A stretch of DNA of 64,000 bases from Takakia lepidozioides. Its lineage: Eukaryota; Plantae; Bryophyta. Location: the NCBI GenBank assembly GCA_030704615.1, contig CM060731.1, positions 52,514,001 through 52,578,000 on the forward strand. The letters are read 5' to 3'. The notes under the pieces are model-generated. The model was not told the origin of the DNA. It worked only from the letters and a program-made list of their open reading frames with translations, and did not search any database. Below, piece by piece: positions 4,301 to 38,211 of this stretch (its first letter is position 1; each line of letters opens with the position of its first letter). A program made the position numbers and the translations under genes.

Positions 4301-5853
4301 TATTTGACAAAATGCCTAAACGAGATATGCATACATGGAGTATGATGATTGCAGGATATGCAAAGCAAGGGAATCCTGAGGAAGCTTTCAAAGTCTATGA
4401 ACAAATGCAAAGGGAAGGGGTGATACCTGACAGGGTCACATTCACTTGCGTTCTAAATGCATGCGCCAGACTGGGATCCTTGGACAGGGGTGAGCGGGTC
4501 CATGCTGACATCATGAAAATTGGAATTGCATCAGATATTACTTTGGAGACCACCCTTATTGACATGTATGCCAAATGTGGGAGCATGAAGCATGCACGTA
4601 GATTGTTTGACCAAATGGAGAAACAGAATGTGGTCTCATGGAATGCCATGATCGCAGGATATGTCAAGCATGGACATGGTGAAGAGGCATTTCAAGTATA
4701 TGAGCAAATGCAAAGGGAAGGAATAATGCCCAACATGGTCACATTCACATCTTTGCTAAATGCATGTGCTAGGCTAGGAGCCCTGGAAAGGGGCAAGCGG
4801 GTTCATGCTGACATCATCTTGAAGGGATTTGATCCAGACATTATTTTGGAGACTACCCTTGTTGACATGTATGCCAAATGTGGGAGCATAGAGGATGCAC
4901 AGAAAGTTTTCAACAAGATGGCTGAGCGGAATGTGTTCGCATGGAACGCCATGATCGCAGGATATGCTATGCATGGGCATGGTGGAGATGCTTTCAGAAC
5001 CTACAAGAAAATGCAACAAGAAGGCTTGAAGCCGGACAATGTCACATTTCTATCCCTTCTGTCTGCATGCAACCATGCAGGCCTAGTGGATAAAGGCCGA
5101 AATTATTTTGATTCCATGCAGCGAGATTATGGCCTTACTCCTACAGTTGAGCATTTTGTCTGCATGGTGGATCTTCTTGGCCGAGTAGGGGAACTGGATG
5201 AGGCACATGACTTAATTAACAAAATGCCAATGAAACCAGATGCTATGGTGTGGCGAGCCTTGCTTGGTGCCTGCAGAATTCATGGCAATGTGGAGGTAGC
5301 AGAATATGCCGCCAAATCCCTTCTCAAGTTGGATCTGCATCATGCTGGAGCTTACGTGCTGCTATAAAACATCTATGCTGCGGCTGTCAGGTGGGATGAT
5401 AAAGCAAAGGTGAGACAGCTGATGGAAGAGAGGGGTCAGACAGGAGCCCGGGCGCAGCTTCATTGAGGTGGACAGCCAGGTGCATGAGTTCGTTTAGATG
5501 ACAATTCGCATCCCCAAATTGAGGATATCTGTTCTGAGCTGAAGAGGTTGTCTGGACAGATGGGGGAGGCTGGGTGTGTGCCAGACACGCGCTTTGTATT
5601 GCATGATGTGGAGGAGGAGCAAAAGGAATTCTCTCTTTGCCAGCACAGTGAAAAGCTGGCCATTGCCTTTGGTCTCATTAGCAAGCCCCCTGGGATGCCT
5701 ATCTGCATCATGAAGAATCTTCGGGGCTGTGGTGATTGCCACACTCCTACAAAGTTCATCTCCAACATTGTTGGGTGAGCAATTACTGTACGGGATGCCA
5801 ATCACTTTCACCACTTCCAAGATGGGATGTCCTCTTGTGGAGATTACTGGTGA
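1361..5853 (+). pseudogene. PLS-class PPR gene with N-terminal OSB-type PDF motif, doubled PLS array and disrupted E/E+/DYW domain
   Basis: Exons ..1557 (LWQNFIADGSQWWDNRSDK|gt) and 1799-1974 (RNSRSPDFRHKHTKTVLWI). PLS ORF 2152-5367. After the TAA at 5365: NIYAAA..W, PGRSFIE, HSEKLA, CGDCH and terminal DYW* at 5842-5853, with stops and frameshifts. Also a TAG at 1417 and an apparent 1-nt deletion near 2178 relative to the paralog. Confidence 0.85.
2152..5367 (+). CDS. PLS-PPR array ORF (1071 aa; two tandem arrays, ends in E1)
   Basis: Repeated MYAKCG / VSWNAMI.GY / PD.VTF..VLNACA P-L-S triplets, plus P2-L2-S2 and E1 motifs. Confidence 0.9.
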   Translation: MQHGRPESHNCLLTHESNCRNSTSTITTAFERWPREGVSTTFFGVYGDVRSLCKEGRLKEALHILNQPGIQVDCKTYVCLLQGCINSKALAEGKQVHIHITQSGLKASIFLNNTLINMYAKCGNVVDAHQVFDKMPERDKFTWSMMIAGYAKHGLAEKAFQIYEQMQGEGVTPDRVTFTSVLNACARIGALERCQRIHADIIKTGVVPDITLETTLLNMYAKCGCIKDARQIFKNMAERNTVSWNAMITGYAKHGHCEEALAIYKQMQQDGITPDVVSFICVLNACASLGSLEEGKRVHADISETEVGSYINLDNSLVQMYAKCGSLKDACHVFDKIVERDVVSWNTMIVGYTQHGQGEMALKLFEQMQQERVRPDRVTFICALNACASLGALEKGKQVHTDILKTGIGLNINLENTLIDMYAKCGSVKDALQVFDKMGKRDVVSWNSMIAGYTQCGHGEEALKIYARMLREGVAVMPNRVTFTCVLNACASLKALNRGQQVHADIMKTRIVSDITLETTLVDMYAKCGSIKDARRLFDKMAERNLVSWNTMIAGYAEHGDGEEVFKIYEQMQQEGLKPDSSTFKSLLSACSHMGLVDEGRNVFESMSRDYGLTPTVEHFACMVNLLGGAGRLDKRSLCQEGRLKEALHMLNQPSIRADLDIYVFLLQQCLDMKALAEGKQVHAHIVESGFKPSIFLDNTLINMYAKCRSMVDAYQVFDKMPKRDMHTWSMMIAGYAKQGNPEEAFKVYEQMQREGVIPDRVTFTCVLNACARLGSLDRGERVHADIMKIGIASDITLETTLIDMYAKCGSMKHARRLFDQMEKQNVVSWNAMIAGYVKHGHGEEAFQVYEQMQREGIMPNMVTFTSLLNACARLGALERGKRVHADIILKGFDPDIILETTLVDMYAKCGSIEDAQKVFNKMAERNVFAWNAMIAGYAMHGHGGDAFRTYKKMQQEGLKPDNVTFLSLLSACNHAGLVDKGRNYFDSMQRDYGLTPTVEHFVCMVDLLGRVGELDEAHDLINKMPMKPDAMVWRALLGACRIHGNVEVAEYAAKSLLKLDLHHAGAYVLL

Positions 5854-7239: not shown

Positions 7240-7493
7240 TTAACAATTTTGCTCCTCCATGTCATGCAACACAAAGCATGTGTCAGGAACATATCCAGCC
7301 TCCTCCATCTGCTGGATCAACCTGGATTTTCTCAGTTTGTGGATGGAATTTGTCTTCTGCGACGAATGTATGGACCTGGTTGTCCACCTCGATGATGCTG
7401 CACCTTTCTCACGCCTCCATCCTCCATCATTTTTCTCACCTTTGCTACTTACTCCCAATTGCCAGCTGCAGCCTAGATGCATGATAGCAGCAC
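7240..7493 (-). pseudogene. Decayed E2/E+/DYW-start tail of the second PPR gene
   Basis: *VLLSCI*AAAGNWE*VAKVRKMM...IEVDNQVHTF...QMEEAGYVPDTCFVLHDMEE with several stops and frameshifts; the rest of the DYW domain is absent. Confidence 0.8.
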
Positions 7494-10411
7494 TTAAGTT
7501 CCAGCCTCCTGTGAATACAATGCCAGAAATTTTTTTGCCACACGTTCTGCAACCTCCACTTTGTCATGAATTCTGCAAGCACCAAGCAAGGCCCCCCAAA
7601 CCCCAATATGTGGTTCCATTGGCATTTTGTTAATGAAATCCTCTGCCTCATCTAATTGCCCTGCACGGCCAAGAAGGTCCACCATGCAGCCAAAATGTTC
7701 TCGGGTAGGAGTGAGGCCATGATCTCGAGTCATGGAGTCAAAATAGTGATGGCCTTCTTCCACCAGACCCACATAGCTACATGCACATAGAACACATATA
7801 AAGGTGATACTGTTTGGATTCAAGCCTTCCTGTTGCATTTGTTCAAATAGTTGCAGAGCTTCCATACCACACCCCTGCTGAGCATATCCTGCAATCATCG
7901 TATTCCACGAGGGCACATCTCGTTCAGCCATATTGTCGAGCACCTGACGCGCATCCTTAACGCTCCCACATTTTGCATACATATCAACCAGGGTATTCCC
8001 CAGAATTATATCTAATGGGATTTTGGCTTTCGTGATTTCAGCATGGACCTCCGTGCCCTTCTCCAGAGCTGCCAGACTCGCACATGCATTTAGAACAGAA
8101 ATGAATGTGACCTTGTCAGGCATCACCCCTTCTTGTATCATTTGCTCGTAGATCTCTAACGCATCCCTCCCACACCCATGCTGAGCATATCCAGTGATCA
8201 TTGCATTCCATGAGACCACGTTTCGCTGGGACATGTTGTCAAACACCTGACGTGCCTCCCTTATGCTCCCACATTTGGCATACATGTCAGCAAGGGCAGT
8301 CTCCAGAATGATATCTTGCCCAATTCCAGCTTTGACCATGTCAGCATGGACCTCTTTGCCCTTTTCCAGGGCTGCCAGGCCAGCACATGCATTGAGAATG
8401 GAAATGAATGTGACCTTGTCAGGAGTCACTCCTTCTTGTATCATTTGCTCATAAATCTCAAAAGCCTCCCTACCACACCCATGTTTTGCGAATCCTGCAA
8501 TCATTGTGCTCCATGAGACCACATCTCGTTTAGTCATATTGACAAACACTTGATGTGCATCCTTCATGCTCCGGCATTTGGCATACATGTCAACAAGGGC
8601 ATTCTCCAAATTTATGTATGATGCAATTCCAGATGTCATTATGTCAGCGTGGACCATTTTGCCCTTTTGCAGGGCTCCAAGGCTTGCACATGCCTTGAGA
8701 ATGCAAATGAATGTGACTTTGTCAGGCGTCACAGCTTCTCGTATCATTTCATCATATATCTCGAAGGCCTCACTACTGCACCCATGCTTGGCATATCCTC
8801 CTATCATTATATTCCATGTACACATATTTCGTTCAGGCATTTTGTCAAACAATCTGCGTGCATTCAGCACGCTCCCACACTTGGCATACATGTTGAGAAG
8901 GGTGTTCAGCAGAAAGATGTTTGGCTTAAATTCAGTTTGGATGATGTGGGTGTGCACCTGCTTTCCCTCTGCTAGGCATTTCCTGTTGATGCACTCCTGC
9001 AAGACACATATATAAGTATTGGAGTCTGCTCCAATGCCTTGTTGATTTAAAACATGCAACGCCTCCTTCAGTTGTCCTGCCTTGCATAGTGCCCTAACAT
9101 CCCCATAAGTGCCAGAAGAAACTCTGCTTGGTGCCTCTCTTGGTCCTTGAAAAGGAATGGTGATGGTGGAGGTGGTACCCTTGCTGCCAGTCTGATGTCC
9201 AACAAATAAGTGTGCCTGATTTGACTCTGCCATCCTGCAGGACTCAGAACTCTCAGTTACAAGCCCTCAAAACTCATAAATCTTCGAAGAAAGATCCCTC
9301 CATAAGGACCGGATTCTAGCTACATATGAACAGCATTACGAAACTATTCCAGTTGACCACTTCAATGATAAAAAATTACCAATTCTATCTGTTTGGATGT
9401 GGGACTCTTGGCATGTACCCTTTGTATTCTGGGCCTGAAGGTCCACCGCTGTGTAGATTGAAGATAGAACTGTCACCAGATTGTGCTTGGCCTTTGATCG
9501 TGGCAGCTAGCTCTGCTTTCAGCCAGAGAGGGTTTGACCAACTCTCAATCCCAAGGACCTCTTTTGTGCGCTTGTCTCCAAAGTCCGGTGACCTTTGACT
9601 CTTCTGTGAAAATCAAGCATGCGCAGCTGAGCATGCGTACCATAGTATCATTTAGACAATGCTACAACCAACAACTCCATAATCTTGTTTGAAGCAACGG
9701 GCCAAAACATTGATCAACCAGCTTCGTTGCTAAAAATTTGACTTCTGCAGCAATAAGAACCACTACTGCAGGTTTCACAGTATAATCTTAACAGCCATGT
9801 ATAAACGAAACTTCACCATGGTCCAGTCTACAAATACAAATGGGCATACCAGCTTCACCAGAAAATGACATCCCTTCATCCTAGAACTAAGAATGTTACA
9901 TTCGACATAGTAACCTTACCTTATCACACCTGTTGTCCCACCCCTGCGAAGGATCAGACATAAACTCCTGCCAAAGATCTTCTATGTTTCTGATTTGGCC
10001 TGCATGTAGACACCAGCTACGTAAATGTGTCGTGGCTCCAAATTGCCTAATTGCGTGGGAGGCAGCCACAGCAAAATTGAGACCTCGGCAAGCACAGCAG
10101 CAATCTCTTGAAAGAGCCATGTTGAGCTGTGTGCGGGATGAGAGCCATCCAGTCCAACCTGGAGAAATGGGCAACCACGACAGCAATCTCCAGAGAAATC
10201 TATGGTCGCATGTACCCTGCATTGGAGGCTTCCGTTGCAACGTAGAGAAATTGGCAAGTACACCAGAATGCTTGAGACAGAGCCACGGTTGCATGTGCCC
10301 GGCGTTGGATCCATGCAGGCTCAAGACTGTCCTCGATCTTCCACACCGGCAGAGACACAGTAGATCGACGGGCCAGGTTATGGAGCTGCAATGGACATCC
10401 ACCTTGGCCAT
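7494..10411 (-). CDS. Spliced PLS-PPR protein: transit-peptide-like N-terminus, OSB-type PDF motif, PLS array, truncated in the E domain
   Basis: Exons 10411-9920, 9603-9419 and 9234-7494 with GT-AG introns join in frame: ...LWQEFMSDPSQGWDNRCDK|KSQRSPDFGDKRTKEVL...EYKG|MAESN..., then the 579-aa PLS ORF. The start codon is uncertain. Confidence 0.75.
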
Positions 10412-15879: not shown

Positions 15880-17677
15880 CCACCACCTGGAAGTGACATG
15901 GAAGGTCCATGGTGACATTGTGAAAGCTATTGTAGGGTTTGTCATTCTGAACACCGCCCTGGTGGACATGTATGCCGAATGCAGGAGCATTAAAGATGCG
16001 GAGGTACTGTTCGACTGTGGCTCAACGAGATGTGGTGTCGTGGAGTGCAATGATCGCATTGGCAGCAAGGCAAGGATGTATGCATGATTTGTGCAGAGGT
16101 AGTGATAGCTGAAGGAGCAGGATAGAGTATGGGTCCATATTCATCCAAGAGGGTCGGATTTCAAGCTCCAGATTACCTATGGATCCCTATGGAAGGATAG
16201 CTACAAGAAACCTCCATGGGTAGATGGTTAGCTGGAAGCGGCAGCTGTAGCGGCACAATTGATAAAATCAGGCACCTCAACCATGACCACAGCTTTTGGA
16301 AGAGGATCAAGCGAGGGAGTCCACAATGCCTCTTCTGGCACTTATGGGCATGTGAAGATGCTTTATGAGGCAAGCAGACTGAAAGAGGCTCTACAAACTT
16401 TAAATCAAAGAGGCATTTTCAGTATATGTAGATACGTATGTGTGTCTCTTGCATAAGTGCATCAAGATGAAAGGCCTAGAAGTTGGAAAGCAGGTGCACA
16501 CTCACATTGTCCAAAGTGGATTCACACCGAACGTTTTTCTACTCAACAACCTTGTCAACATGTATGTTAAGGGGAGCATCATGGATGATCACCAAGTGTT
16601 CAACACAAAATGCCTCAACGATCTTTGATCATGTGGAATATAATGTTGGCGGGCTTACCAAGCATGGGCGTGGTACGAATGCTTTGGAGACCTGTGAGCA
16701 AATGATGCGCGAAGGGGTGAAGCCCAACCACGTCGCGTTTGTATATGTTTGCAATGCGTGTGCAACATTGAGCCCTGGACAAAGGGCAAAGAGGTGCATG
16801 GGGTATCATCAAAGCTGGAATTGTACCAAATGTCATTATGAACACTGCCTTGGCAGCTCTGGAAAAGGGGAAAGAGATCCATGGCGACATCTTCAGAGCT
16901 AGAATTGTACCAAATGTCATTCTGAACCATACCATAGCTTTGGAAAAGGGGAAAGAGGTCCATGGCGACATCTTCAGAGCTGGAATTGTATCAGATGTCA
17001 TTCTGAACAATACCCTGGTGAACATGTTTGCAAAATGTGGGTGCATCTAGGATGCAAAGGGAGTGTTCGACACTATGGCTGAATGAGACTCTGGTGTCAT
17101 GGAGTGCGATGCTTGCAGGGTATGCAAGGCAGGGACGTGGGATGGAGGCTTTGGAGAGCTATGAGCAAATGATGGGGGAAGCACATCATGTTTGTGTGCA
17201 TTTGCAATGTGCGTGCAAGCCTGGCAACCCCGGAGAAGGGCAAGAGGTGCATAGGGATATCATCAAAGCTGGAATTGTGCCAAATGTCAATCTGAACACT
17301 GCCCTGGCAGCTTTGGAAATGGAGAAAGGTGCATGGCGACATCTTCAGAGCTGGAATTGTACCAGATGACATTCTGAACAATACCCTGGTGGACATGTTT
17401 GCAAAATGTGGGTGCATCTAGGATGCAAAGGGAGTGTTCGACACTATGGCTGAATGACATATGGTGTCGTGGAATGCGATATATGCGTTTGTAGGGTATG
17501 CACAGCAGGGATGTGGAATGGAGGCTTTGGAGAGCTATGAGCAAATCATGGGGGAAGCACATCATGTTTGTGTGCATTTTCAATGTGCGTGCAAGCCTGG
17601 AAGCCCTGGAGAAGGGCAAGAGGTGCATAGGGATATCATCAAAGCTGGAATTGTGCCAAATGACAATCTGAACACTA
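15880..17677 (+). pseudogene. Degenerate PLS-PPR pseudogene with internal tandem duplications, interrupted by a retrotransposon
   Basis: LYEASRLKEALQTLNQRGI, GKQVHTHIVQSG, MFAKCGCI* and similar motifs with many frameshifts. About 16950-17290 is duplicated at about 17320-17677. Confidence 0.85.
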
Positions 17678-18901
17678 TGTCGTACGCATACATATCGCTA
17701 CACAACTACATCGCTGTCCAAAACCACACAACACATGTGCACACCACACACTAGTATACCACTAGTCCAACCACTAGGCTACAACTAGTCAGTCACTAGG
17801 CTGCCACTATGCTGCCCACTATGGCAGTTACTAGTCCACACAATAGAGGGGCTAGTGATAAAGAAGAAGAATACAAGCACAAGCTCATGCGAGCTCACAC
17901 AGCTGAAGCATAAACTCATGCATATATAACCTCATCACTCAAATACAAATCAAGCCAAGTGCACCCCACGCCATGGGGAATCCACACTACGGCGCCATAG
18001 CTAGGCGCGGTGAGGCTCAACTCGAGAAAGATGAGCCTCCCGCGCTTGCCGTGAAGATAACCACTCCAGGGCCTAAATCTGCCTTAACCCCTGGATTGAC
18101 ACTTGGGCCAATCCCAAATGTCAATATGTAAAAGCTAGCTATTTCCTAGCTAGTTTCACACTAGTGGTAAAATAACTTGACAGCTGTCGTACGCATACAT
18201 ATCGCTACACAACTACATCGCTGTCCAAAACCACACAACACATGTGCACACCACACACTAGTATACCACTAGTCCACCACTAGTCCAACCACTAGTCCAA
18301 CCACTAGGCTACAACTAGTCAGTCACTAGGCTGCCACTATGCTGCCCACTATGGCAGTCACTAGTCCACACAATCGCCCCCCTAGCTGGTGCTTAGGTCC
18401 CTCTAAGTTCAGGTAGCCACAAGATGTGATAGTTACCATAGCCTCACTAAGTCCTCAACCACTGTCCCTACTACACTCAAACTCGATAGATCAAGAGGCC
18501 GGGTGCAAGAGTTGCCCCATCGTTAGTCGTTGTCTTGCAACCTGTGAACGCTTGGGATCTCGTGTATTGACTCCTATAAGCTTGGCCTCCCATGTCTTGT
18601 TAGCTGCCTCCAGTCATATCCACTGCCACTATCCCAAGCAGTGTGGACACAACCAATCTCCGTCAGGAACCTTCTCAAGAGGTGATGTCAAGCATCCCAT
18701 ATGCCAACCCCTTGAGCATCAATCACACACCAGCATGGTGGCTGCCCCTTTGGCAGACCCACAGAGCATGCACCTCAAACCTGCAGGTACCACTGCCAAG
18801 TTTGGGTCAACTCTGCCATCGACATTGGGAAGGTGACATGACGCACAATTACGCACATGGTCCTTCCAAGTCATGCCATCCCGACCCTCCAAGATCAGGA
18901 C
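17678..18901 (-). mobile_element. 3' end of Gypsy copy 0 (INT C-terminus/PHD, PPT, B-gc-A-B repeats); the rest is lost after 29252
   Basis: Reverse complement of 28541-29239. B2 17678-17842, junction 17843-17855, A 17856-18182, gc, B1 18185-18372. The sequence resumes as tcctgaggg at 29244-29252. Confidence 0.9.
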
Positions 18902-19228
18902 TGTCAAGTTATTTTACCACTAGTGTGAAACTAGCTAGGAAATAGCTAGCTTTTACATATTGACATTTGGGATTGGCCCAAGTGTCAATCCAGGGGTCAA
19001 AGAAGATTTAGGCCCTGGACTGGTTATCTTCACGGCAAGCGCGGAAGGCTCATCTTTCTCGAGTTGAGCCTCACCGCGCCTAGCTATGGCACTGTAGTGT
19101 GGATTCCCCATGGCGTGGGGTGCACTTGGCTTGACTTGTATTTGAGTGATGAGGTTATATATGCATGAGTTTATGCTTCAGCTTTGTGAGTTCGCATGAG
19201 CTTGTGCTTGTATTCTTCTTCTTTATCA

Positions 19229-19240
19229 CTCGAGAAAGAT
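19229..19240 (+). promoter_or_regulatory. Putative self-priming PBS CTCGAGAAAGAT
   Basis: Perfect complement of 19052-19063 (ATCTTTCTCGAG) inside repeat A; no TGG tRNA-type PBS. Confidence 0.7.
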
Positions 19241-20684
19241 CAGCTCGTATCTATGAGTGCTAGATACGAGTTAGTTGTAGCACTTGTGGTTTTTGCTTGA
19301 GAATGAGAGAAACCAAGTTGTTATGCAAAGAGCACCGTGGAGCTCTTGGTTGTTAGAAGCGGAGGCGATGTGGGTTACGAGGTGGTAAACCTTGGCATTC
19401 GATCTTCAGCTTCAGAGATGAAAGCACCATACTGCAGGTAATTCCAGAGCACCTTGATGGTTTCAGATTGTGTACATGCATGAGCAAGCACGATTGGGAA
19501 GAGGACCAGTCAAGAGCAGGTTATAGTGGCTTTGGTGGCAAAGCTGAGAACTGGACTTGGGAATGCGAGCTTTCATTGTGTGAAGGATTGCAAGACCAAG
19601 CGAAAGGGCTGATTTGGCTTGGGGCAAATCAGTGCACTTTGTGGAGTATGGTGAGATTGGGTTTCAATCTCGAGCTTCAGCATTGAGAGGGCTCTTGTCA
19701 TGGCGAGAGCAGGGCTGGAACAGGAGCTAAGAGGTGCGGCAAGGCCATGGAATGTGCACCTAGGGTTTCAGAGCTTGGAAGAAGAGTTCTTGCACCACAA
19801 GAGCAGTGTCTTGTGGCTGGAAATGTAAGCCTTAGGGTTTCAGGAGCTTGGCAAAGGTTGTGGAGTGCTTAGTCTTGTCTTAGAGAGCATCAAGGAACCA
19901 AGGAGCCAAGATAGGGAGCTGATATCTCTTGTGTGAAGAGGTTGCATGTGTGGAGCATGCTATCAGCCTGGTGAAGGCTTGCACTTTCAGGTGTGGGAGT
20001 GCAAGAAAGGAAGGAAGGGGCTGGTTTCCCTGTAGGGCAAGTGGAGCATGCTTTCAGCCTGTTGAAGCTTGTATTTTCAGGTTTGTGGGTGCAAGAAATG
20101 AAGCAAAGGAGCTGATTCTCTTATGGTGAGAGTGGGGCATGTTTGGAGCATGCCTTCAGCCAATTGAGGCTCTTGTTTTCAAGCTTTAGAGAGCTAGAAC
20201 GGAAGGTCTAGGGCTGGTTTCCACTTGGAGTGAAAGAAAAACACTTGTAGGGCCTATGTGAGTTGGGGTTTCAACTTCAAGCTTGAAGAGAGCGCAACTC
20301 TTGAAGCAGCAGGTGTAGGGGGCTGGAATAGGCTCTAAGACTGATGCTATGGCCAAGGAGAGTGCTTGAATGAGCGCTCACAAGGGCTGGGAACCAGCAG
20401 GGCTTGGTTGTTTGCCATTGAGTTTAGTGGCGTGTTTGGGGAGGCTAAGTGAGAAAGAAGGCTTGGTTTGTGGCAACCACCTCATGGCTTAGGGCTACTA
20501 TGGTGGTGTGTGGGAGCCGAAAGAGCAAGAATACCTTGTTGATTTCCTCACAGCCGCCATAGCTCGGTGGAAAGAAGCCTAGAGTCCAAGAGACACAAAC
20601 CCTAGCTTGGCGTGGCTAAACCCCTTGGAGAAATGGCTAAACTGCCAGAGCGGCCATGGATGGGGTTGTGACGGGCTGTGCCCA

Positions 20685-21995
20685 TGGCCTTTGGGGCTGT
20701 GATGGGCTGTGAGGGGCTGTGACAGGCCGTGCCTGAGGCCTTTGAGGCTGTGAGGGGCTGTGAGGGGCTGTGACAGGCTGTGCCCATGGCCTTTGGGGCT
20801 GTGATGGGCTGTGAGGGGCTGTGACAGGCCGTGCCTGAGGCCTTTGAGGCTGTGACGGGTTGTGAGGGGCTGTGACAGGCCGTGCCTGAGGCCTTTGGGG
20901 CTGTGACGGGCTGTGACGGGCTGTGTCAGGCCGTGCCTGAGGCCTGTGGGGCTGTGAGGGGCTGTGACAGGCTGTGCCCGTGGCCTTTGGGGCTGTGAGG
21001 GGCTGTGATAGGCTGTGCCCAGTGGCCTGTGGGGCTGTGACGGGCTGTGCGGGGCTGTGACAGGCTGTGCCCATGGCCTTTGGGGCTGTGATGGGGTGTG
21101 AGGGGCTGTGACAGGCCGTGCCTGAGGCCTTTGAGGCTGTGACGGGCTGTGAGGGGCTGTGACAGGCTGTGCCCATGGCCTTTGGGGCTGTGATGGGCTG
21201 TGAGGGGCTGTGACAGGCCGTGCCTGAGGCCTTTGAGGCTGTGACGGGCTGTGAGGGGCTGTGACAGGCCATGCCTGAGGCCTTTGGGGCTGTGACGGGC
21301 TGTGACAGGCTGTGCCTAGTGGCCTGTGGGGCTGTGACAGGCTGTGCCCATGGCCTTTGGGGCTGTGATGGGCTGTGAGGGGCTGTGACAGGCTGTGCCC
21401 ATGGCCTTTGGGGCTGTGATGGGCTGTGATGGGCTGTGACCGGCCGTGCCTGAGGCCTTTGAGGCTGTGACGGGCTGTGAGGGGCTGTGACAGGCCGTGC
21501 CTGAGGCCTTTGGGGCTGTGACGGGCTGTGAGGGGCTGTGTCAGGCCGTGCCTGAGGCCTGTGGGGCTGTGACGGGCTGTGATGGGCTGTGAGGGGCTGT
21601 GACTGGCTGTGCCCATGGCCTTTGGGGCTGTGATGGGCTGTGAGGGGCTGTGACAGGCCGTGCCTGAGGCCTTTGAGGCTGTGACGGGCTGTGACGGGCT
21701 GTGACAGGCCGTGCCTGAGGCCTTTGGGGTTGTGACGGGCTGTGAGGGGCTGTGACAGGCCGTGCCTGAGGCCTTTGGGGTGTGAGGGGCTGTGAGGGGC
21801 TGTGACAGGCCGTGCCTGAGGCCTTTGAGGCTGTGACGGGCTGTGACGGGCTGTGACAGGCCGTGCCTGAGGCCTTTGAGGCTGTGACGGGCTGTGACGG
21901 GCTGTGACAAGCTGTGTGGGGCTGTGACGGGCTGTGACAGGCTGTGGCGAGCTGTGACGGGCTATGAGGGGCTGTGACAGGCTGTGCCCAGTGGC
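20685..21995. repeat. Tandem array in the 5' leader of copy 1: about 51-bp higher-order units built from GGGCTGTGA(C/G/T) 10-mers
   Basis: Units start at 20721, 20772, 20823 and so on; two main variants (cctgaggcc / cccatggcc). Confidence 0.95.
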
Positions 21996-22842
21996 CTGTG
22001 GGACTATGACGGCTGTGACCAGTGAGCTGTGTGGGCCTGTGCTGGTCTGTGGTGGCCCGTGTTGACCTGTGGACGGCCTGTGCTGACTCGTGGAGGCACT
22101 GGTGGACTGCCTAAGGACTGGCATGTGGTCTGGAAGGCCGAATTTTGAAGCTCGTGGAGGGCGGTTTGAGGAGTATCTTCATGATATTCCCATGGTCATG
22201 CAAGTGAGGGAAGAGAGGAGAGGAAGAGTGTTGGGATGAGGGCATGCTGGGGTTAGGCATTGCTTTAGCTTCTCTTCCTCGTAGTTTCCACCCTCTCATT
22301 AGACCAAGACCTTTCCGTAGGTGGAGGCAAGAGTCAGTCCGGGTTTGGGCTGGGGTGTCCTTGCAGGAGCAACACCATGGAGATGTTTTTGGTGTGGGGG
22401 AGTTGTCGTTCTGATTTCTTGTGTTTGGATCCCCTCCATACCTGCATGCTTGACTGTGCATCATGCTAGTTTTGTGTGGGCGCTTGTTTTTATAGGTGAT
22501 TGGTCCGGATTTGATCACCGGCCAGTCTTAGAGCATGTTGTCGATGGTGAGGTTGGGGTGATGACCAGCCAGACCATCAATGTTTCTCCTGTGGTGAGGT
22601 TGGAGGTGATGACCAGCCAACCATAGGAGTGCTTGCGGTGGATGCAGGTACAGGTGTAGGCTATGTTAGGAACTTAGTATTCCAAACCATAAGCCGCAAC
22701 AGGTTCTCTACCCGGTTACCTTGTGGAGAGGGGGTTAGGGACATGTTCATGACCGGTTGAGTGTCAACACGGAGGTGCCACTAGTTGTTGGGACAGTGCC
22801 GGTTCGAGCACTAGCGATACTAGTGGGTACACGAGACGAGGT

Positions 22843-25317
22843 GTGCGGTTTAGGCCACCTTCACCTCCTGTGTTTTCCACGGAAGGTTCTGATTCGGATT
22901 GTGAATCAGGAGGACTCATACCGGCGGTGCAAGTTGTTTCTTTGTCATTGTTGTGGGACACAATGGAGGAGATGTATGGAGCTACCAAGGGGCCACGAAG
23001 GTACTCTAGGGTGGTGGGCACCATCGAGTTGGATGATTTTATCCAAGAGTTTGATAGTTGGTGTGATTTGCAGCAAATGCGCAATCCACAACTATTTACG
23101 CCTTTCATGGCATGGAAGGGGCTGTTTCAGCACCTTGAGGGGCCGCCTATGGATGATTACCATGAGTTCAGGCGGGGGCATGAGGTTGAGATCGAGGAGT
23201 GGAGGATGTACTGGTCACCCAACTATGTCTCCACTAGGGGCACTAGAGCCACAAGGGCAGTGGCTGCACCTGCCGCTGCACCGGCAGCTTCAGCAAGTAG
23301 CAGAGGGACTAGTGGGACTGGTGGTACAGTAGCTACGATGTCCACCCAAGCCACTACCGCATCAGCACTAGTACCCGTACCTGCCTTCAACCCTGTTGTG
23401 GAGTTCTTCGAAGAGTTGAGATGGAACTACCAAGGGGTGAGGACAGAGAAGTTGCGGAGCTTGCAAGAGTTCCAACGGAAGCCGACCGAGAGCTTGAGGG
23501 AGGCTTTCACTCGCATGAGGCGCTTGATAAATGTAACCCAAGGGGTTACGGAAGCTCAGGCAGTCCAATTCTGGTATGGGATATTGGACAAGGAGCTGAG
23601 GAGAAGGGTGCGGGATGCAACTCTCCTACAAGTGGCCTAACCCACCTTAGCAAATGTGTTTTTGCTGGCAGAGCGGATAGAGCTCAACATGGTGGAGGAA
23701 CGAGTGGTCATGGTGGGATTTGCTAAGGAGACGCCACGGGGTAGTGGTGCTCCTAGCCAACCACTACCTCAACGTGCTCAAGGCAACAAGGGGGCTCAGG
23801 TGAAGCTCAGGGAAGGGCAGAGAGGACCTCAGATGCAGGGGTCTCTCCCTTCATTTGCTGGCCAACAACGGGCGGATGTGGTGTGCTGGACATGTGGAGG
23901 ACCCCATGTCAAGAAGGATTGTCCAGAGGGAGGCAAAGGGCCGGCACATGCACAGCCTGCACAGTTGCAGTGTGGGCATTGTGGCAAGCACGGGCATGGA
24001 GAGGCCCAGTGTTATGGTTTGCATCCTGAGTTGCGCCTAGGTCAGTTCCAAGGGAATAATGGTGGCCGGGGGCGAGGTGGAGCAGCCCAGAGAGGACGAG
24101 GTGGCCAGCCACGAGGTGCAGGCCAAGGCCAAGCTCAACATGGCCAAGGACGCGGAGGTCAGGGTGTTGACCAAGGCATGGCCAACCGGCTTCAACAGCT
24201 AGAGCAGAGGCTCGCTGCCATGGCTACAGCTCAGGTGGTACCGGCTCTAAGGCCGGATGGTCCACCTCCTGTTCCTGAGGGAGGAGATATGGGAGGCATG
24301 GGATTCATGTGTGGAGCAGCACTACCACTAGTGCAGGTGGAGTCTGCTGCAGCCGTGACTCGAGGAGCAGCACGAGTTCCTGAGCCACGAGGTACAGAGG
24401 TGGAGTTGGATCCACAGCGTGGGGAGGCAAGCCGTCAGGCTAGGCTTCCTCAGTCATTCACATTGGCGGAGACAATGTCGACGCCATCCATGGCACCTAG
24501 TTCTCGCCCGACTGTTACCGAGGCGGAGGTTACTATGCCATTGGGGAGAGCTACACGGGTAGCAGCACTACCTAGTGTTGCCAAGGCTACGGCAGCTAGT
24601 GTGCTGCTAAGAGCGGCCACATCTGTGTGCCAGGCTCCATTGTTCTCGGCTACCATGATTACGACGCCGGGGGTAAGACCAGCTGAGGTGTTCAGGCTGG
24701 CAGCTACACTCTATGAGAGTGGGGAGGTTACTTCATCTTCTGCGGAGATAGTAGGAGGTGTAGTGCCGGAGGGATCCTCGGATTTGAGGGTCAATACTGC
24801 CACGGCGGCGCCATGGCAAGCTGCAGCTACCAGGTTGATGGAGCTGCCAGCTAGGCCAGCCATTGAGCGCGCCATGGTGACACCTGGAGTTGTCATGTTA
24901 GACAACCAGGATGGCATTTTCTGTTTGAGTGGACCGGCAGGCAAGAGGTACCGGCCACTGCGGGTCTTGTTGGACTCGGGAGCTCAGCCATTGATGCTGG
25001 GCAGAGCTGCTATTGCAGGCTTGGGCCTCACGGAGGCGGATATGGAGCCTTGTCCTTTCCAGATACAGACGTCTCTGGGAGGATCGGAGCAGGCTCGGGG
25101 CATGACACGGCATGAGTTGGCTATCAGACTACGGCCGGATCACCCTACAGATGGCTCAGTGATGCGAGCCAAGGCCATTGTGACAGACGCAGTATCATAC
25201 GATGTCCTGGTTGGTGGGGCAGTGTTGTACCCCATGGGCTTCACCCTTGGGAGGAGTCAGCTTCCTATAGGCCTGCATGGCAGTCAGGGGAGGGCCGGCG
25301 TGTGCAGCTCCCTGTGA
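22843..25317 (+). pseudogene. gag (two zinc knuckles) plus aspartic protease of copy 1
   Basis: CWTCGGPHVKKDC and CGHCGKHGHGEAQC; LLDSGAQP protease motif at about 24967-24990; CAA>TAA stop at 23638; frameshift near 25250. Confidence 0.85.
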
Positions 25318-26927
25318 CGTTCATAGGAGGAGTTGCGGTTGCCCAGCGAGGCAAGATGCCGACACTAGCAGCATTCACAGCGGCAGTGAGTTGGCCTAGA
25401 GAGTTGCTTGAGGGCAATGCTCATTCAGAGGATGTACCACCTCCGAGAGAGCAAGATGACATGTATGGTATGGCGGAGTTGCCTACCATGGTTGCTCAGA
25501 CTCCATTGTGGGGCACGAGCAAGGATTTGCAGCGGGATGCTGATCGACGGGTGCAACAAGCCTGGGTGGAGGCTTTTGTACCGTCAAGAGAGGAGGAGAG
25601 TGCGGGGATTGCACCAGGACCACCTCAGTTGTCTCCATTGGACATCACACCTATTGTGTGGCAGTATCCGGATGAAGGCATTTATCTTCTGGACTTGTTT
25701 GGCGGGATCAGCACCGGATTGGCTGTTGTGTTACAGGCAGGTGTACGAGTTCGGCGTTACCTGTATGTGGAGAGGGATGAGACTGCACGACGCGTTTCAC
25801 TTCGCCATGTTGCTCAGTTGGTGCAGCGGTACCCTGAGTTGTTGTCGGTGTCTGCAATTTGTGGATATCAGCAGGCCTTGCCAGCAGACATTTCGTTGCT
25901 GGGGGCGCAGGATTTGGAGCGGGTTGGCTCCATTGATTTGGTAGTGGCAAGTTGGCCCTGCCAAGGGCATTTATCAGCCGGGCATGGCAATGGATTGCGA
26001 GACTCGAGGTTGGGTCTGTTTCGGGAGATAGTGCGGATTTTGCGCCACTTGCAGCTTCATCAAGCTGTATCTCCAGCATACATCTTGGAGAATGTGCCAC
26101 TGATGGGCGATTCTCGGGCCAGGGTGATGGCCAGTGTGCATCAAGTCCGGTCGTGGCTTGGGTCAGCAGTGTTGCTAGATGCAGCTACAGTGGGGTCACG
26201 GGCTCATCGTCCACGGCTATGGTGGACTAACTTGATGCCACCCGCACTGCTCAAGCGTGCATTTGATGGGGTGCAGTGGCCAGCACATCTCACAGTGGAT
26301 AACATTCTGGACACAGGGAGGCAGTCTCAGCGTGTGAGACACGATGACCGTTCGCCTTTGGCAGTGGTCAACAAGGTGGGTCAACCACGGGCAGCATTAC
26401 CTACACTGCTCAGCTTCCCAGGATCGCATGCTTTCCGGGATAGTGGACCTGGCCTCCTGTGGGATGCTCAGTTGCAGCAGTTAGTGGAGCCTAATGCTGA
26501 CGAGCGTGAGCGGGCAATGGGTTTTACCACTGGTACCACGGCGGTGTCGTCTCTTTCTGAGGCATCACGTCGTCAAGTGTTGGGGCAAGCAATGGATCTC
26601 AATTGCTTGACCTGGATTATCAGCTTGGCTCTGGCTGAGCAACGCAGAGTGCGGAGTACACTTCCCTCAATGGTCTCTCTGCCTACCGAGACGGTACAGG
26701 CAGTGAGTGGGGGCGAGCATGTGAGGACCACGGGGTGCATGCATCCATGGCACACGTGGGAGGTGCTCGAGGTTCAGAGGGAGTTGGCAGCCAAGGCGGC
26801 TGTGATGGATGAGGTTGGGGATTCTTCTCGGGTTGATGAGGTCCTCAAGGATGAGATGATGGGGCAGGATGAGGCCTTGTCATTGACTGAGCAGGCAGGG
26901 AGTACTGCTCAAGAGGTTGCGGCATAG
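25302..26927 (+). CDS. C5 cytosine DNA methyltransferase domain (DNMT3-like, non-permuted) inside the pol polyprotein
   Basis: Motif I LDLFGGISTG, II VERD, III ADI, IV SWPCQG (catalytic PC), VI ENV, VIII AHRPRLWWTN, IX ERERAMGF, X LGQAMD; core about 25680-26640. Confidence 0.9.
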   Translation: MQLPVTFIGGVAVAQRGKMPTLAAFTAAVSWPRELLEGNAHSEDVPPPREQDDMYGMAELPTMVAQTPLWGTSKDLQRDADRRVQQAWVEAFVPSREEESAGIAPGPPQLSPLDITPIVWQYPDEGIYLLDLFGGISTGLAVVLQAGVRVRRYLYVERDETARRVSLRHVAQLVQRYPELLSVSAICGYQQALPADISLLGAQDLERVGSIDLVVASWPCQGHLSAGHGNGLRDSRLGLFREIVRILRHLQLHQAVSPAYILENVPLMGDSRARVMASVHQVRSWLGSAVLLDAATVGSRAHRPRLWWTNLMPPALLKRAFDGVQWPAHLTVDNILDTGRQSQRVRHDDRSPLAVVNKVGQPRAALPTLLSFPGSHAFRDSGPGLLWDAQLQQLVEPNADERERAMGFTTGTTAVSSLSEASRRQVLGQAMDLNCLTWIISLALAEQRRVRSTLPSMVSLPTETVQAVSGGEHVRTTGCMHPWHTWEVLEVQRELAAKAAVMDEVGDSSRVDEVLKDEMMGQDEALSLTEQAGSTAQEVAA

Positions 26928-27232
26928 CAACCACGGGATGTGTCCTCTACCTCTAAGTCTGCTGGACTTAAGGTTGCAGTTACGAAGGGCAATTGGGAGC
27001 TTGACATTGGACCTATTGTCACTAGAGGAGAGAGACGACGTATACGGCGGTTCCTGAGGCTTACAGGAATTGCTTTGCCTCTCGTGCTACGGTGGATGAG
27101 CATGAGAGACATGTTCAGGTTGTGCATCGATTGGGTTTGGTCAATAGGGATGCGGATGGATTGAGTCGCAATCCATGCACGAGCCAGTAGGATGACACTG
27201 GAGCTCGGTGGCATGGTGAGACGGACGAGGAG

Positions 27233-28813
27233 ATGGTGCCGGGATGGCACGCATCTACATTTTTGTGTATCTTGGCATCGGGAGGTCAGATTGGACCTAC
27301 AACAGGGATGACTGTAGACGGAGTGTCTGAGGACCCTGAGGCTAGTGATGAGCTAGGTGGTGCCAGAGATATACATGAGGATTCGGCTGTGTTGGACTAC
27401 CTCCGCACGGGAGACACGGCAGCCATTGTGACTGCCAGGGAGAGGGATCGGATCCTGCAACGAGCCAAGAGGTTCAAGTGGGAGGGGATACACCTACTTC
27501 GAGTGTGGGAGGATGGTCGGGTGAGGATTGTGCCTCACCCCACACAGCGTGCACGGTTAGTGCGGCATGCCCATGAGGAGTTGGGGCATTTTGGAGTGCG
27601 ACGCACTCACAGTTTACTGCAGGGGCAGTATTGGTGGCGTGGTATGCATACAGAGGTGCAACAGTTCATGGCTAGGTGCATGGTGTGTGACAGGGTGCGT
27701 GCTTCATTCAACGCCCCTACACCACAGTTGCATCCTTTACCAATCATGGGATTGGGCTACAGGTGGAGTCTTGACTTCGCAGGACCGTTGCCACTGACTA
27801 TGCGCCACCACATATATGTGTTGGTGATGGTGGAGCACTTCTCCAAGTGGATTGAGTTGGTTCCATTGCCTGACAAGGCTAGTGAGGGGGCTGCGTATGC
27901 ATTCTTGGATCGTGTGCTTAGCCGATTTGGTGCTCCAGCTGAGGTACTCACGGACCAAGGGAGAGAGTTCTTGGGGGAGTTTCAGGCTTTGTGTGATAAA
28001 GCCTTGATAGACCACCGCACCACTTCTCGGGATCATCCTGAGGCCGATGGCTTAGCAGAGAGCGTTGTTCAGACGGTGAAGAGGGGTTTGCGCAAGTATG
28101 GCTTGCAGAAGGGACACCTAGGAGATTGGGATCTTCAGGTTCCTTGGTTAGCCATGGGCTACAGGTTCAGCAAACAAGCATCACTTGCCTCCTTCTCACC
28201 ATATTTCCTTCTCTTTGGCCGAGAGCCGGATTTGCCTGCAGCCATTCGTAGGGACACTGCTCAAGTCCTTAACCTTGGCGACCCGGACGTGTGGGTACGT
28301 GCATGTAATCAGCGTGCAGAGTTGTTCAAGAAAGTCATGCCCATGGCTTTTGAGAACCTTGCCATTGCACAGCACCGTGATACGTTGAGGTATGCCACTA
28401 TACGTGGTGGAGGATATCGTCCTGGGGTTCGGAGGTTTAGCCCTGGTGACTATGTTTATTTGCACCAGACTGCTCCTACGACTCTGGATGTTACTGCAGG
28501 GTGTGTTATTCTGAGGGTTCGAGAGGTGTTGCCCTCAGGGGTCCTGATCTTGGAGGGTCGGGATGGCATGACTTGGAAGGACCATGTGCGTAATTGTGCG
28601 CCATGTCACCTTCCCAATGTCGATGGCAGAGTTGACCCAAACTTGGCAGTGGTACCTGCAGGTTTGAGGTGCATGTTGTGTGGGTCTGCCAAAGAGGCAG
28701 CCACCATGCTGGTGTGTGATCGATGCTCAAGGGGTTGGCATATGGGATGCTTGACACCACCTCTTGAGAAGGTTCCTGACGGAGATTGGTTGTGTCCACA
28801 CTGCTTGGGATAG
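27233..28813 (+). CDS. Integrase (HHCC, DDE) with C-terminal PHD finger, copy 1
   Basis: HEELGH..CMVC, WSLDFAGP, LTDQGREF, LAE; CMLC..CDRC..WHMGC..WLCPHC (C4HC3). Confidence 0.92.
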   Translation: MVPGWHASTFLCILASGGQIGPTTGMTVDGVSEDPEASDELGGARDIHEDSAVLDYLRTGDTAAIVTARERDRILQRAKRFKWEGIHLLRVWEDGRVRIVPHPTQRARLVRHAHEELGHFGVRRTHSLLQGQYWWRGMHTEVQQFMARCMVCDRVRASFNAPTPQLHPLPIMGLGYRWSLDFAGPLPLTMRHHIYVLVMVEHFSKWIELVPLPDKASEGAAYAFLDRVLSRFGAPAEVLTDQGREFLGEFQALCDKALIDHRTTSRDHPEADGLAESVVQTVKRGLRKYGLQKGHLGDWDLQVPWLAMGYRFSKQASLASFSPYFLLFGREPDLPAAIRRDTAQVLNLGDPDVWVRACNQRAELFKKVMPMAFENLAIAQHRDTLRYATIRGGGYRPGVRRFSPGDYVYLHQTAPTTLDVTAGCVILRVREVLPSGVLILEGRDGMTWKDHVRNCAPCHLPNVDGRVDPNLAVVPAGLRCMLCGSAKEAATMLVCDRCSRGWHMGCLTPPLEKVPDGDWLCPHCLG

Positions 28814-29252
28814 TGGCAGTGGACATGATTGGAGGCAGCTAACAAGACATGGGAGGCCAAGCTCGTAGGAGTCAATACATGAGATCCCAAGCTCAAGTTC
28901 ACAGGTTGCAAGACGGCGACTAACGATGGGGCAACTCTTGCACCCGGCCTCTTGATCTATCGAGTTTGAGTGTAGTAGGGATAGTGGTGGAGGACTTAGT
29001 GAGGCTATGGTCACTATCACATCTTGTGGCTACCTGGACTTAGAGGGACCTAAGCACCAGCTAGGGGGGCAATTGTGTGGACTAGTGACTGCCATAGTGG
29101 GCAGCATAGTGGCAGCCTAGTGACTGACTAGTTGTAGCCTAGTGGTTGGACTAGTGGTATACTAGTGTGTGGTGTGCACATGTGTTGTGTGGTTTTTGGA
29201 CAGCGATGTAGTTGTGTAGCGATATGTATGCGCACGACAGGACTCCTGAGGG

Positions 29253-30480
29253 TTTTCGACAACGTGCGGTCGCCGCCTCGGCGGTCTGGTGCCGCCCAGT
29301 GGCATCCGTTCCCAACACTTAGTGCATCAACACTCAATCCTGTCGGGGGGGGGGGGGGGGGGGTCAAAGGTGGACGTGGTTGGACGGGGTGGCCCGCGAG
29401 GGGGCAACCCGCGGCACGCCCGACTCGATCCCGGAGTATCAACATCCTCCGCATCACCTAAAATTTGGCCCCGGTCCCTCTACGATTGTGCCCGGCAGCC
29501 TGTATTGGATCAGATGCAATGGGTGGCTCCTCGCCACAAAAAACGGTCGCTCTAGGGCCACAATCGATATGTGGTACTACCTCCCCATCCTCGAGGGAGA
29601 CGGGTCGACGTTTCCTCACCATCGCATCCTAATTAACACACGCCACCAGCATTTTCATTTCTCAAAAACCGTTGGCAAAAAGACCCTATGCCTTAGCCTC
29701 GGGGCTTTCTTGAAATTGGTAACCAAAGACGGAGCATCCCTATGGTGCTAGAGAGCCCAAGACAATAAATCCTTCCTCACGTTCTATCTTCAGGATGCCC
29801 ACACCATGGAAAAATTTGTTGAGACTCAGCGCTTTGCGCTTATCAGATTGAACCACATTTTGGGTACGTGAATCCTAATTACACCGTTTATCCTTTCAAC
29901 CCCAAGACCCACAACCAAAACCGCCAATCCAAAACCCAGCACCATAAAGAAAAACAAACACCCTAACCCAGTACCATATGGAAAGAAACAAAATAAAAAT
30001 AAAAACTAAGAACCCCAAAAGGCCCTAAACCCTAAACCCAGAAAGGCCAGCCGTCGCCTCCTGCGACACCCTCACGTAGCATTTGGTGACGTGTTTTTTC
30101 ATTTTTTTGCGCCGAGGGTCGCACCCTGCGACGGAAAGCCGTCGCGGGAGGCGACGTGTTTTTATTTATGTATGGTGCCGGGGGTTGCAAGCAGCGATGG
30201 CCCGCCGTCGAGATTACCATTTACACATTTCAAAAAAAAGGCGGGGCGCAGGCGTGCGACGGCCGGGCGTCGCACGTAGGCGCCGCGCCCTTTTTTTCCC
30301 CCCCAAGTGCTTGAAGCACCTCCTTCTCCTCCCGTTTTCATTTGTTCTTTGGGAGAGAGGTAGTTCTGAGAGTGGGGTTTAGGGTGGAGGAGAAACGCAC
30401 CTGTTGCTGAGCCCGAGGTGGTCGCAAGGCCCCAAGGAGTTTGCCCCAATGCCGCTCCAACGCCCAAGGTAAGCACCGCC
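29253..30480. mobile_element. Probable CACTA-type subterminal repeat region (terminus missing)
   Basis: gcgac/gtcgc and gacgtgttttt motifs resemble 57990-58690 next to the CACTA terminus. Confidence 0.4.
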
Positions 30481-30920: not shown

Positions 30921-30974
30921 TGATGAAACAAAACAAAACAAAAAGAGGTTGGGGGGGGAGTTACTGAGCAGAAG

Positions 30975-32560: not shown

Positions 32561-32569
32561 GAGAGGGAG

Positions 32570-37350: not shown

Positions 37351-38199
37351 CTCTCTTTTTAACTTTTTCTACCCCCTCTCTCCCTCTATGGGATTTGTTT
37401 TGTGAGCAGCACAAAAGAGAGGAGAGAGAGAGAGAGAGAGAGAGAGGGGGAGCGAGAGGGACAGATCAGGAAACAAAAAAAAAAAAAAAAAAAGATGGGA
37501 GGGGAGTGACTGAGCAGCTGCTGCTCAATCATCCCCCCCCCCACCCATTTTTTTTCATTGTTGTCCCCTCTCTCCCTCTGTCTCCCTCCTCGGAATTGGC
37601 CGGTTGCATCAGTGTTCTTTTCATGTTTTTCCATCTATACCGGATGGATTCTAAACAGTGTTTTCACTTGCCCTATAAAGTTTTTCTATCCATACCGGAA
37701 GATTTACCTGGGTGGACACTAAAATACCTCTAAAAAGGGTCTATAATTTTTCATTCCTCTTTTATTGACTTTCATCTATGTCATGGTTTTAGTCATGGTT
37801 ATCTAGAATTACCTACTTCTAGTTAACTAGGACATTTTAGATATTTATATTTATATTTTGTGTGTTGGGACTTCATTTGGTCTCACATGCCAAGTGAGGT
37901 GTTGAGCCTCACTTGAGACATGGAGATAGGTTTTCCCCTTGTGAGTGTTGAGGAGGCTCATCTTCTTGTAGTTGAGCCTCTATGAGCTTCTCTCACCTCC
38001 ATAGCTCTAGGTATTGAGAGGGAGTGTGTTGAGGGCTTTGTAGGGTGGATTCCTTTAGCAAAGGTGCCATTGGCTTGACTTAGTTTATGTGATAGAGTGG
38101 ATTTCACTTGGAAGGACTAGGGCTTGTTCTTCATGTGATTGCTTCATGCTTTGAGAGCTTTCATTGTCTTCTACTTCTCTCATTTCTCATCTCTTATCA

Positions 38200-38211
38200 C
38201 TACAAGAAGAT
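38200..38211 (+). promoter_or_regulatory. Putative self-priming PBS CTACAAGAAGAT
   Basis: Perfect complement of 37960-37971 (ATCTTCTTGTAG) inside repeat A. Confidence 0.7.

Follow-up and report, generated by a model that had tools for sequence, protein, structure and literature searches.

In the 64,000-nucleotide stretch of Takakia lepidozioides contig CM060731.1 that was analysed here (the window), comparing the window with itself and reading the element ends delimits three copies of one retrotransposon family, copy 0 on the minus strand and copies 1 and 2 on the plus strand, and I will discuss how a short joint between two of the family's repeat segments, called A and B, may come about. The subject proper is 13 bases long: positions 17843-17855 read ATAGAGGGGCTAG on the plus strand and tatca-CT-AGCCCCTCT-AT-tgtg on the minus strand, where copy 0 passes from A into B, while the same joint of copy 2 reads tatcattgtg (46596-46605), and the letters that an earlier model-made reading of this DNA (the initial annotation) quoted for both joints are exact. 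Integrated elements take one of two forms, either A1-genes-polypurine tract (PPT)-B1-GC-A2-joint-B2 or A-genes-B alone. Copy 2 has the first (A1, CT and the genes, PPT, B1, GC, A2, a single T, B2), copy 0 has its 3' part (PPT, B1, GC, A2, 12 extra bases, B2), and copy 1, nested in copy 0, has the second (A, genes, PPT, B) with no GC-A-B module; about 12 bases of copy 0 resume at 29244-29256, past the right target-site duplication (TSD) of copy 1. Chance similarity is excluded for the A and B repeats: A1 and A2 of copy 2 agree at 420 of 421 positions (99.8%) and its B1 and B2 at 84 of 87, and between copies 0 and 1 the A segments are 97% identical and B2 and B 98%.

Relatives, ends and coding content

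Relatives were found in metagenome contigs with a 22-nt pattern of the conserved PPT block, which has no match in viral_contigs or genome_contigs; the 28 metagenome loci form a third subfamily, from another plant host. With contigs that have common flanks merged before counting, there are nine distinct ends at which PPT-B meets the flank (L001/L010, L002/L004, L003/L016/L020, L007/L019/L026 with a truncated B, L008, L009, L014, L015 and L023) and seven at which PPT-B1-xx-A2-joint-B2 does (L005/L012, L006/L013/L025, L011/L018, L021, L022, L024 and L028), L017 being too short to classify and L027 rearranged. In L027, at about 1283-1800, the order is PPT, B, AC, A, CT-CAAAGAA(C) and then the inverted first ~180 nt of A, with the switch point at a 10-mer common to the primer-binding site (PBS) and a hairpin inside A, an order that replication with fold-back, or else faulty assembly, could explain.

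Duplications of 4 bp lie at the start of A and the end of B in all six elements with both ends visible, five of them perfect (copy 1 GGAC, copy 2 TCTA, L008 ACTA, L015 TGTG, L023 ATTA) and one with a single mismatch (L006, AACA/AATA), and the integrated unit therefore begins with the TGTC of A and ends with the GACA of B, without matching complete outer repeats. Complete identical long terminal repeats (LTRs) at both ends are indeed absent, the 5' end being A only and the 3' end B-GC-A-B, and the repeat B-GC-A, as bounded by PPT and PBS, is complete only in the element interior. A 3' end stopping at A occurs in none of the 17 distinct metagenome 3' ends and none of the three window copies, and no integrated copy has the GC at its outer ends. 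An empty-site paralogue of the copy 2 target runs uninterrupted through 35162-35163, and when public contigs of sequencing runs were compared with one 9.1-kb stretch covering copy 2, contigs of run X1 were found to connect 37772 directly to 46685, as empty-site joints of copy 2; with 64,436 contigs of that run matching the stretch, the family is very abundant. In run X5, from another organism, one contig at 46179-46180 reads ...AAAGCTC-TGTC and another GACA-GCTCCTACAG, and together they may represent both flanks of a single insertion that duplicated 4 bp, GCTC.

The coding region of copy 2 holds RVT_1 (residues 319-475), RT_RNaseH (538-667) and Integrase_H2C2 (811-864) in one open reading frame (ORF) at 42131-44749 and an rve domain in the next (44750-45835), and the pol order reverse transcriptase (RT), RNase H, DDE integrase is that of Ty3/gypsy (Metaviridae-type) elements. 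Because these domains are present and none of 32 distinct ORFs on both strands matches a tyrosine recombinase (Phage_integrase), the family is Ty3/gypsy-type by its enzymes. Copy 1 gives a weak gag match and a weak protease match, then, in the place of RT and RNase H, a DNMT3-like C5 cytosine methyltransferase domain in pol (25116-26927, plus strand; PF00145, E = 9.8e-9; matching DNMT3A chains at E = 1e-8, with FGG, PCQ and ENV motifs visible), and then integrase-PHD. The same domain lies in L006 (5083-6654), L015 (4267-5760), L023 (4257-5557) and L002 (3110-3796), full relatives with gag, protease, DNMT3-like domain, RT-RNase H and integrase; RT and RNase H are absent from copy 1 and L008, which have the DNMT3-like domain, and copy 2 is without it. 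A PHD finger (PF00628) follows the integrase core at 28670-28810 (E = 1e-10) and 45720-45832 (E = 2e-9), standing in both copies where chromoviruses have a chromodomain, which both copies lack. Nucleotide similarity between copies 1 and 2 stops at 24943 and 42899, respectively, and many contigs of runs X1, X5 and X7 depart from copy 2 upstream of 42899, a pattern suggesting that subfamilies have recombined in modules at the protease/RT border. Between the A/PBS and gag of copy 1 lies a G-rich array of 51-nt tandem repeats (20532-22061), open on the minus strand and without a Pfam match, and a weaker tandem array lies in copy 2 at 39508-39895.

Priming sites and the two joints

The 12 nt that follow A1, starting with CT, can pair with a 12-mer inside A that has a conserved TTGAGCC just 3' of it, and the paired 12-mer and predicted PBS differ from subfamily to subfamily (ATCTTCTTGTAG and CTACAAGAAGAT in copy 2, ATCTTTCTCGAG and CTCGAGAAAGAT in copy 1, GTTCTTTGAA and CTCAAAGAAC in L008). 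Across six elements of three subfamilies 86% of the cells pair, a share that drops to 40-53% if the partner is shifted by 1-3 columns; seven of the 12 pairs have changed on both sides, and the observed covariation score is reached by none of 500 shuffles. Self-priming of the Tf1/sushi type is recognised by at least 11 nt after the repeat that are complementary to a segment within it, and here there are 12 pairs; the compensatory changes support self-priming at the predicted PBS after A. By eye, and without comparison to tRNA sequences, no tRNA-type PBS is apparent after A or in B. In L028 the 12-mer inside A is preceded, at a distance of about 31 nt, by a TATAAA. On the other side, the 22-nt PPT block ending GGGGGGC is common to copies 1 and 2 and the 28 metagenome loci. 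The initial annotation had placed CT after A in both window subfamilies, which is so (38200-38201 in copy 2, 19229-19230 in copy 1), and AT before TGTG after the run of Gs, which is also correct (46091-46092, 29072-29073 and, on the minus strand, 18374-18373).

A1 and A2 part right after ...CA, the homology of B1 and B2 begins right after GGGGGGCGA, and the leading bases before TGTGG co-vary at the B1 and B2 sides, being T in copy 2 and GT in the third subfamily. Because the PBS adjoins A and the PPT precedes B, the last base of A would be the U5 end and the first base after GGGGGGCGA the U3 start, and with U5 and U3 so placed reverse transcription should build B-GC-A as the repeat. Measured against these predicted boundaries, an integrated copy corresponds to B-GC-A-genes-B-GC-A permuted circularly, with A joined to B and the opening at GC. 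Since PBS-primed synthesis could not copy the A/B joint from RNA, this joint would be rebuilt in each cycle.

The joint itself is mostly precise. That of copy 2 reads TATCA-T-TGTGG and its PPT side GGGGGGCGA-T-TGTGG; six of the seven distinct joints of the third subfamily read ...TTTTCA-GT-TGTGG without an indel (L021 with a transition, no indel), and its PPT side before B1 reads GGGGGGCGA-GT-TGTGG. These joints are thus exact abutments of the two predicted complementary DNA (cDNA) ends, with one shared A, and by the predicted PBS and PPT the U5 end directly abuts the U3 start in seven of nine distinct joints. Two joints deviate, that of copy 0 by its 12 extra bases and that of L011 (TTTTC-GAGT-TGTGG) by one, to be compared with a background rate, across A and B, of 0.0021 indel events per site per copy, although the count of 2/9 is post hoc, copy 0 having prompted the study, and becomes 1/8 without it. 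Aligned with the PPT, the filler of copy 0 agrees at 6 of 12 positions in direct and 9 of 12 in inverted orientation. In L011/L018, B2 is split by an unrelated insertion of ~825 nt after TGTGGTACATG, and the same copy has the sole non-standard joint of the third subfamily.

The initial annotation had taken the joint for the junction of a 2-LTR circle made by host nonhomologous end joining (NHEJ), with both dinucleotides of the assumed unprocessed ends kept in copy 0 and with a joint that varies between copies. As a junction of LTR end with LTR start this stands, in that the U5 end meets the U3 start of a B-GC-A repeat bounded by PPT and PBS, but to call the joint variable and NHEJ-made goes too far: the usual joint retains no CT, the same indel-free ...CA-GT-TGTGG recurs in six of seven third-subfamily joints, and copy 2 follows the same rule. 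The junctions collected from related copies, apart from those of copy 0 and L011, are free of indels and so support a variable joint only weakly. A junction fixed within each subfamily was held to sink the idea, but that is too strict, because exact joining of defined ends yields an identical sequence each time.

The other joint, B-GC-A, is a perfect palindrome, GACAGCTGTC, and its constancy, which the initial annotation did claim, extends from copies 0 and 2 to all ten distinct copies, none with an indel, five of them retaining GC and five differing by transitions only (AC, GT, AT). If both strands were cut after their CA, the products would have recessed CA-3' ends and 5'-GC overhangs, as retroviral ends do after 3' processing. 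The palindrome, the TSDs at the start of A and end of B and the DIRS-like split-repeat layout are all additions to that annotation, which mentioned none of them.

Proposed joining and opening, and the rival explanations

The reading I favour, with a probability of roughly 0.55, is that the A/B joint in the 3'-terminal A2-B2 module marks the place where both ends of the reverse-transcribed DNA were joined. Layout, target duplications, adjacency to the priming sites, precise joint and palindrome are observed in integrated copies, and the joining and opening steps that I infer from them would run as follows. Reverse transcription would yield a linear DNA with B-GC-A at both ends, and these ends would be joined precisely, the ...CA of U5 meeting the base that directly follows the PPT, into a circle or something equivalent, whether by host ligation into a 2-LTR circle, by ligation after integration or by template switching of the reverse transcriptase, each of which the integrated copies fit. 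The DDE integrase would then open GACA/GC/TGTC in the repeat that precedes the genes and integrate the molecule so permuted, the GC being discarded; a one-repeat intermediate opened in the same manner would give the A-genes-B form, and the 12 extra bases of copy 0 and the extra base of L011 would reflect an occasional imprecision in joining that is not passed on.

Several points weigh against this. The evidence comes entirely from integrated copies, with no circular or end-joined DNA molecule among them, and repeat contigs from metagenomes may hold assembly errors. A symmetric circle with two palindromes should open equally often at the downstream one, so that a bias must be assumed (the upstream repeat may, for instance, be double-stranded first): the form A-joint-B-GC-A-genes-B is found in none of the four elements that end B-flank and have a visible 5' end (copy 1, L008, L015 and L023), and the alternative opening is likewise found in neither of the two elements that terminate in A-B and show both ends. 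The joint hardly varies and bears no positive signature of error-prone NHEJ, the ends defined by reverse transcription (TGTGG... and ...TCA) also bear TG and CA and would have to be ignored by the integrase, and it is odd that so abundant a family should rely on an end-joined by-product. The A-genes-B copies, too, could equally have arisen by recombination between B1 and B2 after insertion.

An unlikely alternative is that A2-joint-B2 is an inherited module copied from the template, so that reverse transcription itself reproduces the split repeats with no end joining and the joints of the subfamilies differ by ordinary divergence. It would account for a joint that is fixed in six of seven distinct third-subfamily copies and differs between subfamilies, it has a parallel in tyrosine-recombinase retroelements with the A1-B1-A2-B2 layout (described in the consulted part of PMC4157794), and it fits the differences within copy 2, three of 87 positions between B1 and B2 and one of 421 between A1 and A2. 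Against it stands the position of the PBS right after A1, from which minus-strand DNA transferring to A2 cannot copy the joint or B2, and so does the match, to the base, of the edges of A and B with the PBS and PPT boundaries, with the leading T or GT co-varying. An inherited B2 is also at odds with 23 B sequences in which no fixed difference sets B1 apart from B2, and with copy 2 itself, where one of the three B1/B2 differences is private, nearly all contigs having the B2 base at 46115. A nearest-relative test of B1 and B2 within elements has too little power, the copies being 5-13% diverged and B 112 nt long, and in L006 A1 and A2 match each other best, but narrowly (92% against at most 91%).

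It is rather improbable that the joint is simply fixed and precise and that the 13 bases of copy 0 stem from an insertion or slippage that later befell an old and damaged fragment, and are uninformative on how the joint is made. Copy 0 lacks its 5' part and is interrupted by a nested insertion, a 23-nt indel already separates its B1 from its B2, and the B of its subfamily is rich in CTAG/ACTAGT repeats, the extra bases beginning with CTAG; yet background indels are so rare (0.0021) that two of nine joints hit at the junction is more than expected, by a count that is biased and falls to 1/8 without copy 0, and the reverse complement of the extra bases is PPT-like (TAGAGGGGC against TAGGGGGGC, 8/9), a weak hint of a replication-linked origin. 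A DIRS-order (PAT/Ngaro-like) element whose circle is integrated site-specifically by a tyrosine recombinase would share the split direct repeats A1-genes-B1-A2-B2 and is highly implausible, with no such recombinase in the 32 ORFs, H2C2 and rve present and 4-bp TSDs in 6/6 elements.

Table 1. Positions of family features in the window
Feature	Positions	Strand	Remark
Copy 0 B2, terminal	17678-17843	-	ends ...GTACGACA beside flank; 98% to copy 1 B
Copy 0 extra bases CTAGCCCCTCTA, 12 nt	17844-17855	-	between last base of A2 and T+TGTG start of B2
Copy 0 A2 (TGTC...TATCA)	17856-18182	-	97% to copy 1 A
Copy 0 palindrome GACA-GC-TGTC	18179-18188		B1/A2 joint
Copy 0 GC	18184-18183	-	between B1 and A2
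Copy 0 B1	18185-18373	-	23-nt indel against B2, in repetitive stretch
Copy 0 PPT CTAGGGGGGCGA	18385-18374	-	directly before B1
Copy 0 integrase C-terminus remnant	18386-18901	-	PHD part; last 90 codons
Copy 1 TSD GGAC	18898-18901 (left), 29240-29243 (right)		
Copy 1 whole element	18902-29239	+	A, PBS, gag, protease, DNMT3-like, integrase-PHD, PPT, B
Copy 1 A	18902-19228	+	
Copy 1 PBS CTCGAGAAAGAT	19229-19240	+	predicted
Copy 1 PPT	29061-29072	+	
Copy 1 B	29073-29239	+	
Copy 2 TSD TCTA	37775-37778 (left), 46687-46690 (right)		
Copy 2 A1	37779-38199	+	
Copy 2 12-mer ATCTTCTTGTAG inside A1	37960-37971	+	complementary to PBS
Copy 2 self-priming PBS CTACAAGAAGAT	38200-38211	+	predicted
Copy 2 coding region	40675-45835	+	gag-like, RT, RNase H, integrase (H2C2 + rve), PHD finger; no DNMT
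Copy 2 PPT CTAGGGGGGCGA	46080-46091	+	inside 22-nt conserved block
Copy 2 B1	46092-46177	+	
Copy 2 palindrome GACA-GC-TGTC	46174-46183		B1 end, GC, A2 start; predicted integrase cleavage site
Copy 2 GC	46178-46179	+	
Copy 2 A2	46180-46600	+	
Copy 2 B2	46601-46686	+	joint TATCA-T-TGTGG at 46596-46606

The window has the character of plant nuclear DNA and is soft-masked, with 303-nt periodic arrays and many retroelements. The arrays lie at 2251-5430 (plus strand), 7420-9143 (minus strand) and 15929-17676, in inverted arrangement and with a common GACATGTATGCCAAATGTGG-like stretch, the last of them adjoining copy 0, and they may be PLS-type pentatricopeptide repeat genes or pseudogenes. Other elements account for a direct pair at 48247-48721 and 53206-53874 (82% identical, ~4.96 kb apart, with internal 192-nt repeats) and for inverted matches of 90-95% between 30969-32565 and 54206-54688.

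Meaning and comparison with known systems

In the textbook view, LTR retrotransposons and retroviruses insert linear DNA by the outer ends of their LTRs, and circles lead nowhere. In this family the ends of every integrated copy fall inside the repeat that reverse transcription is predicted to build, at a conserved palindrome, and a U5-to-U3 joint is kept internally; if the joining that I propose is true, a DDE integrase would here act in nature on an end-joined intermediate, and a plant would allow direct tests of the old question whether circle junctions are integrated and of how DIRS-like split repeats arose. There is a practical side as well, since standard LTR finders would take A as the LTR and miss the true ends and TSDs of a very abundant family. 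Taken further, and here I am decidedly more tentative, a streptophyte-wide Gypsy-Dnmt3 lineage, from charophyte algae to land plants, might integrate obligatorily from end-joined two-repeat DNA, its integrase cutting a palindromic site encoded in the repeat, in which case the circle-junction route of retroviruses, long given up, would be realised in nature and a structural bridge between LTR and DIRS/Ngaro elements would be at hand.

Among known systems, the priming resembles that of Tf1/sushi-type elements, including the plant Tcn1 clade, self-priming of this kind having been predicted for some plant clades in the part of Neumann et al. that was consulted (2019, PMC6317226): no tRNA-type PBS is apparent, and the sequence after the repeat is complementary to a stretch within it. 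Unlike in those elements, a PHD finger and not a chromodomain follows the integrase here, in a comparison made by features. Another close likeness is to the Klebsormidium nitens Gypsy elements that carry Dnmt3 inside pol (de Mendoza et al. 2018, PMC5890265), whose Fig. 4c legend gives them the repeat structure of a DIRS element (A-coding-B-A-B) together with Gypsy domains. By published description, three features are alike, namely the Gypsy domains, the A-coding-B-A-B layout and a Dnmt3-type gene in pol, here the DNMT3-like domain of copy 1, L006, L015, L023 and L002, whereas the host here has land-plant-like features. In the literature searched, Gypsy-borne Dnmt3 is in print for the charophyte alone, and the family's DNMT3-like gene in a land-plant-type genome means that the charophyte alga is not the sole case. 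The portions of the text and supplements of PMC5890265 that were consulted gave no account of PBS or PPT positions, palindrome, target duplications or mechanism; in the literature searched, so far as its sources were consulted, A-coding-B-A-B with Gypsy domains is noted once, in that paper, and no description of the mechanism was found. The architecture thus appears to belong to a barely described kind, and the mechanistic reading appears to be new.

The same order, A1-internal-B1-A2-B2, is given for PAT-like, Ngaro and VIPER elements of the DIRS order in what was consulted of PMC4157794, a layout such as a two-repeat circle shows when opened within one of its repeats; their enzyme is a tyrosine recombinase, whereas the element here has a DDE (rve) integrase and 4-bp TSDs. 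Retroviral 2-LTR circles offer the other half of the comparison, since the integrases of prototype foamy virus (PFV) and human immunodeficiency virus type 1 (HIV-1) are reported, in the parts consulted of PMC1180852 and PMC1905944, to cleave the palindromic LTR-LTR junction of such circles; both systems have a CA..TG palindrome cleavable into two processed ends and a U5-to-U3 junction that arises, in the retroviral case, by end joining and, in this family, would do so on the reading favoured above. In the retroviruses, however, the palindrome is made by ligation, whereas here it is encoded in the repeat as B-GC-A, with 2 bp between CA and TG, and the U5/U3 joint is a separate, non-palindromic one that the integrated copy retains.

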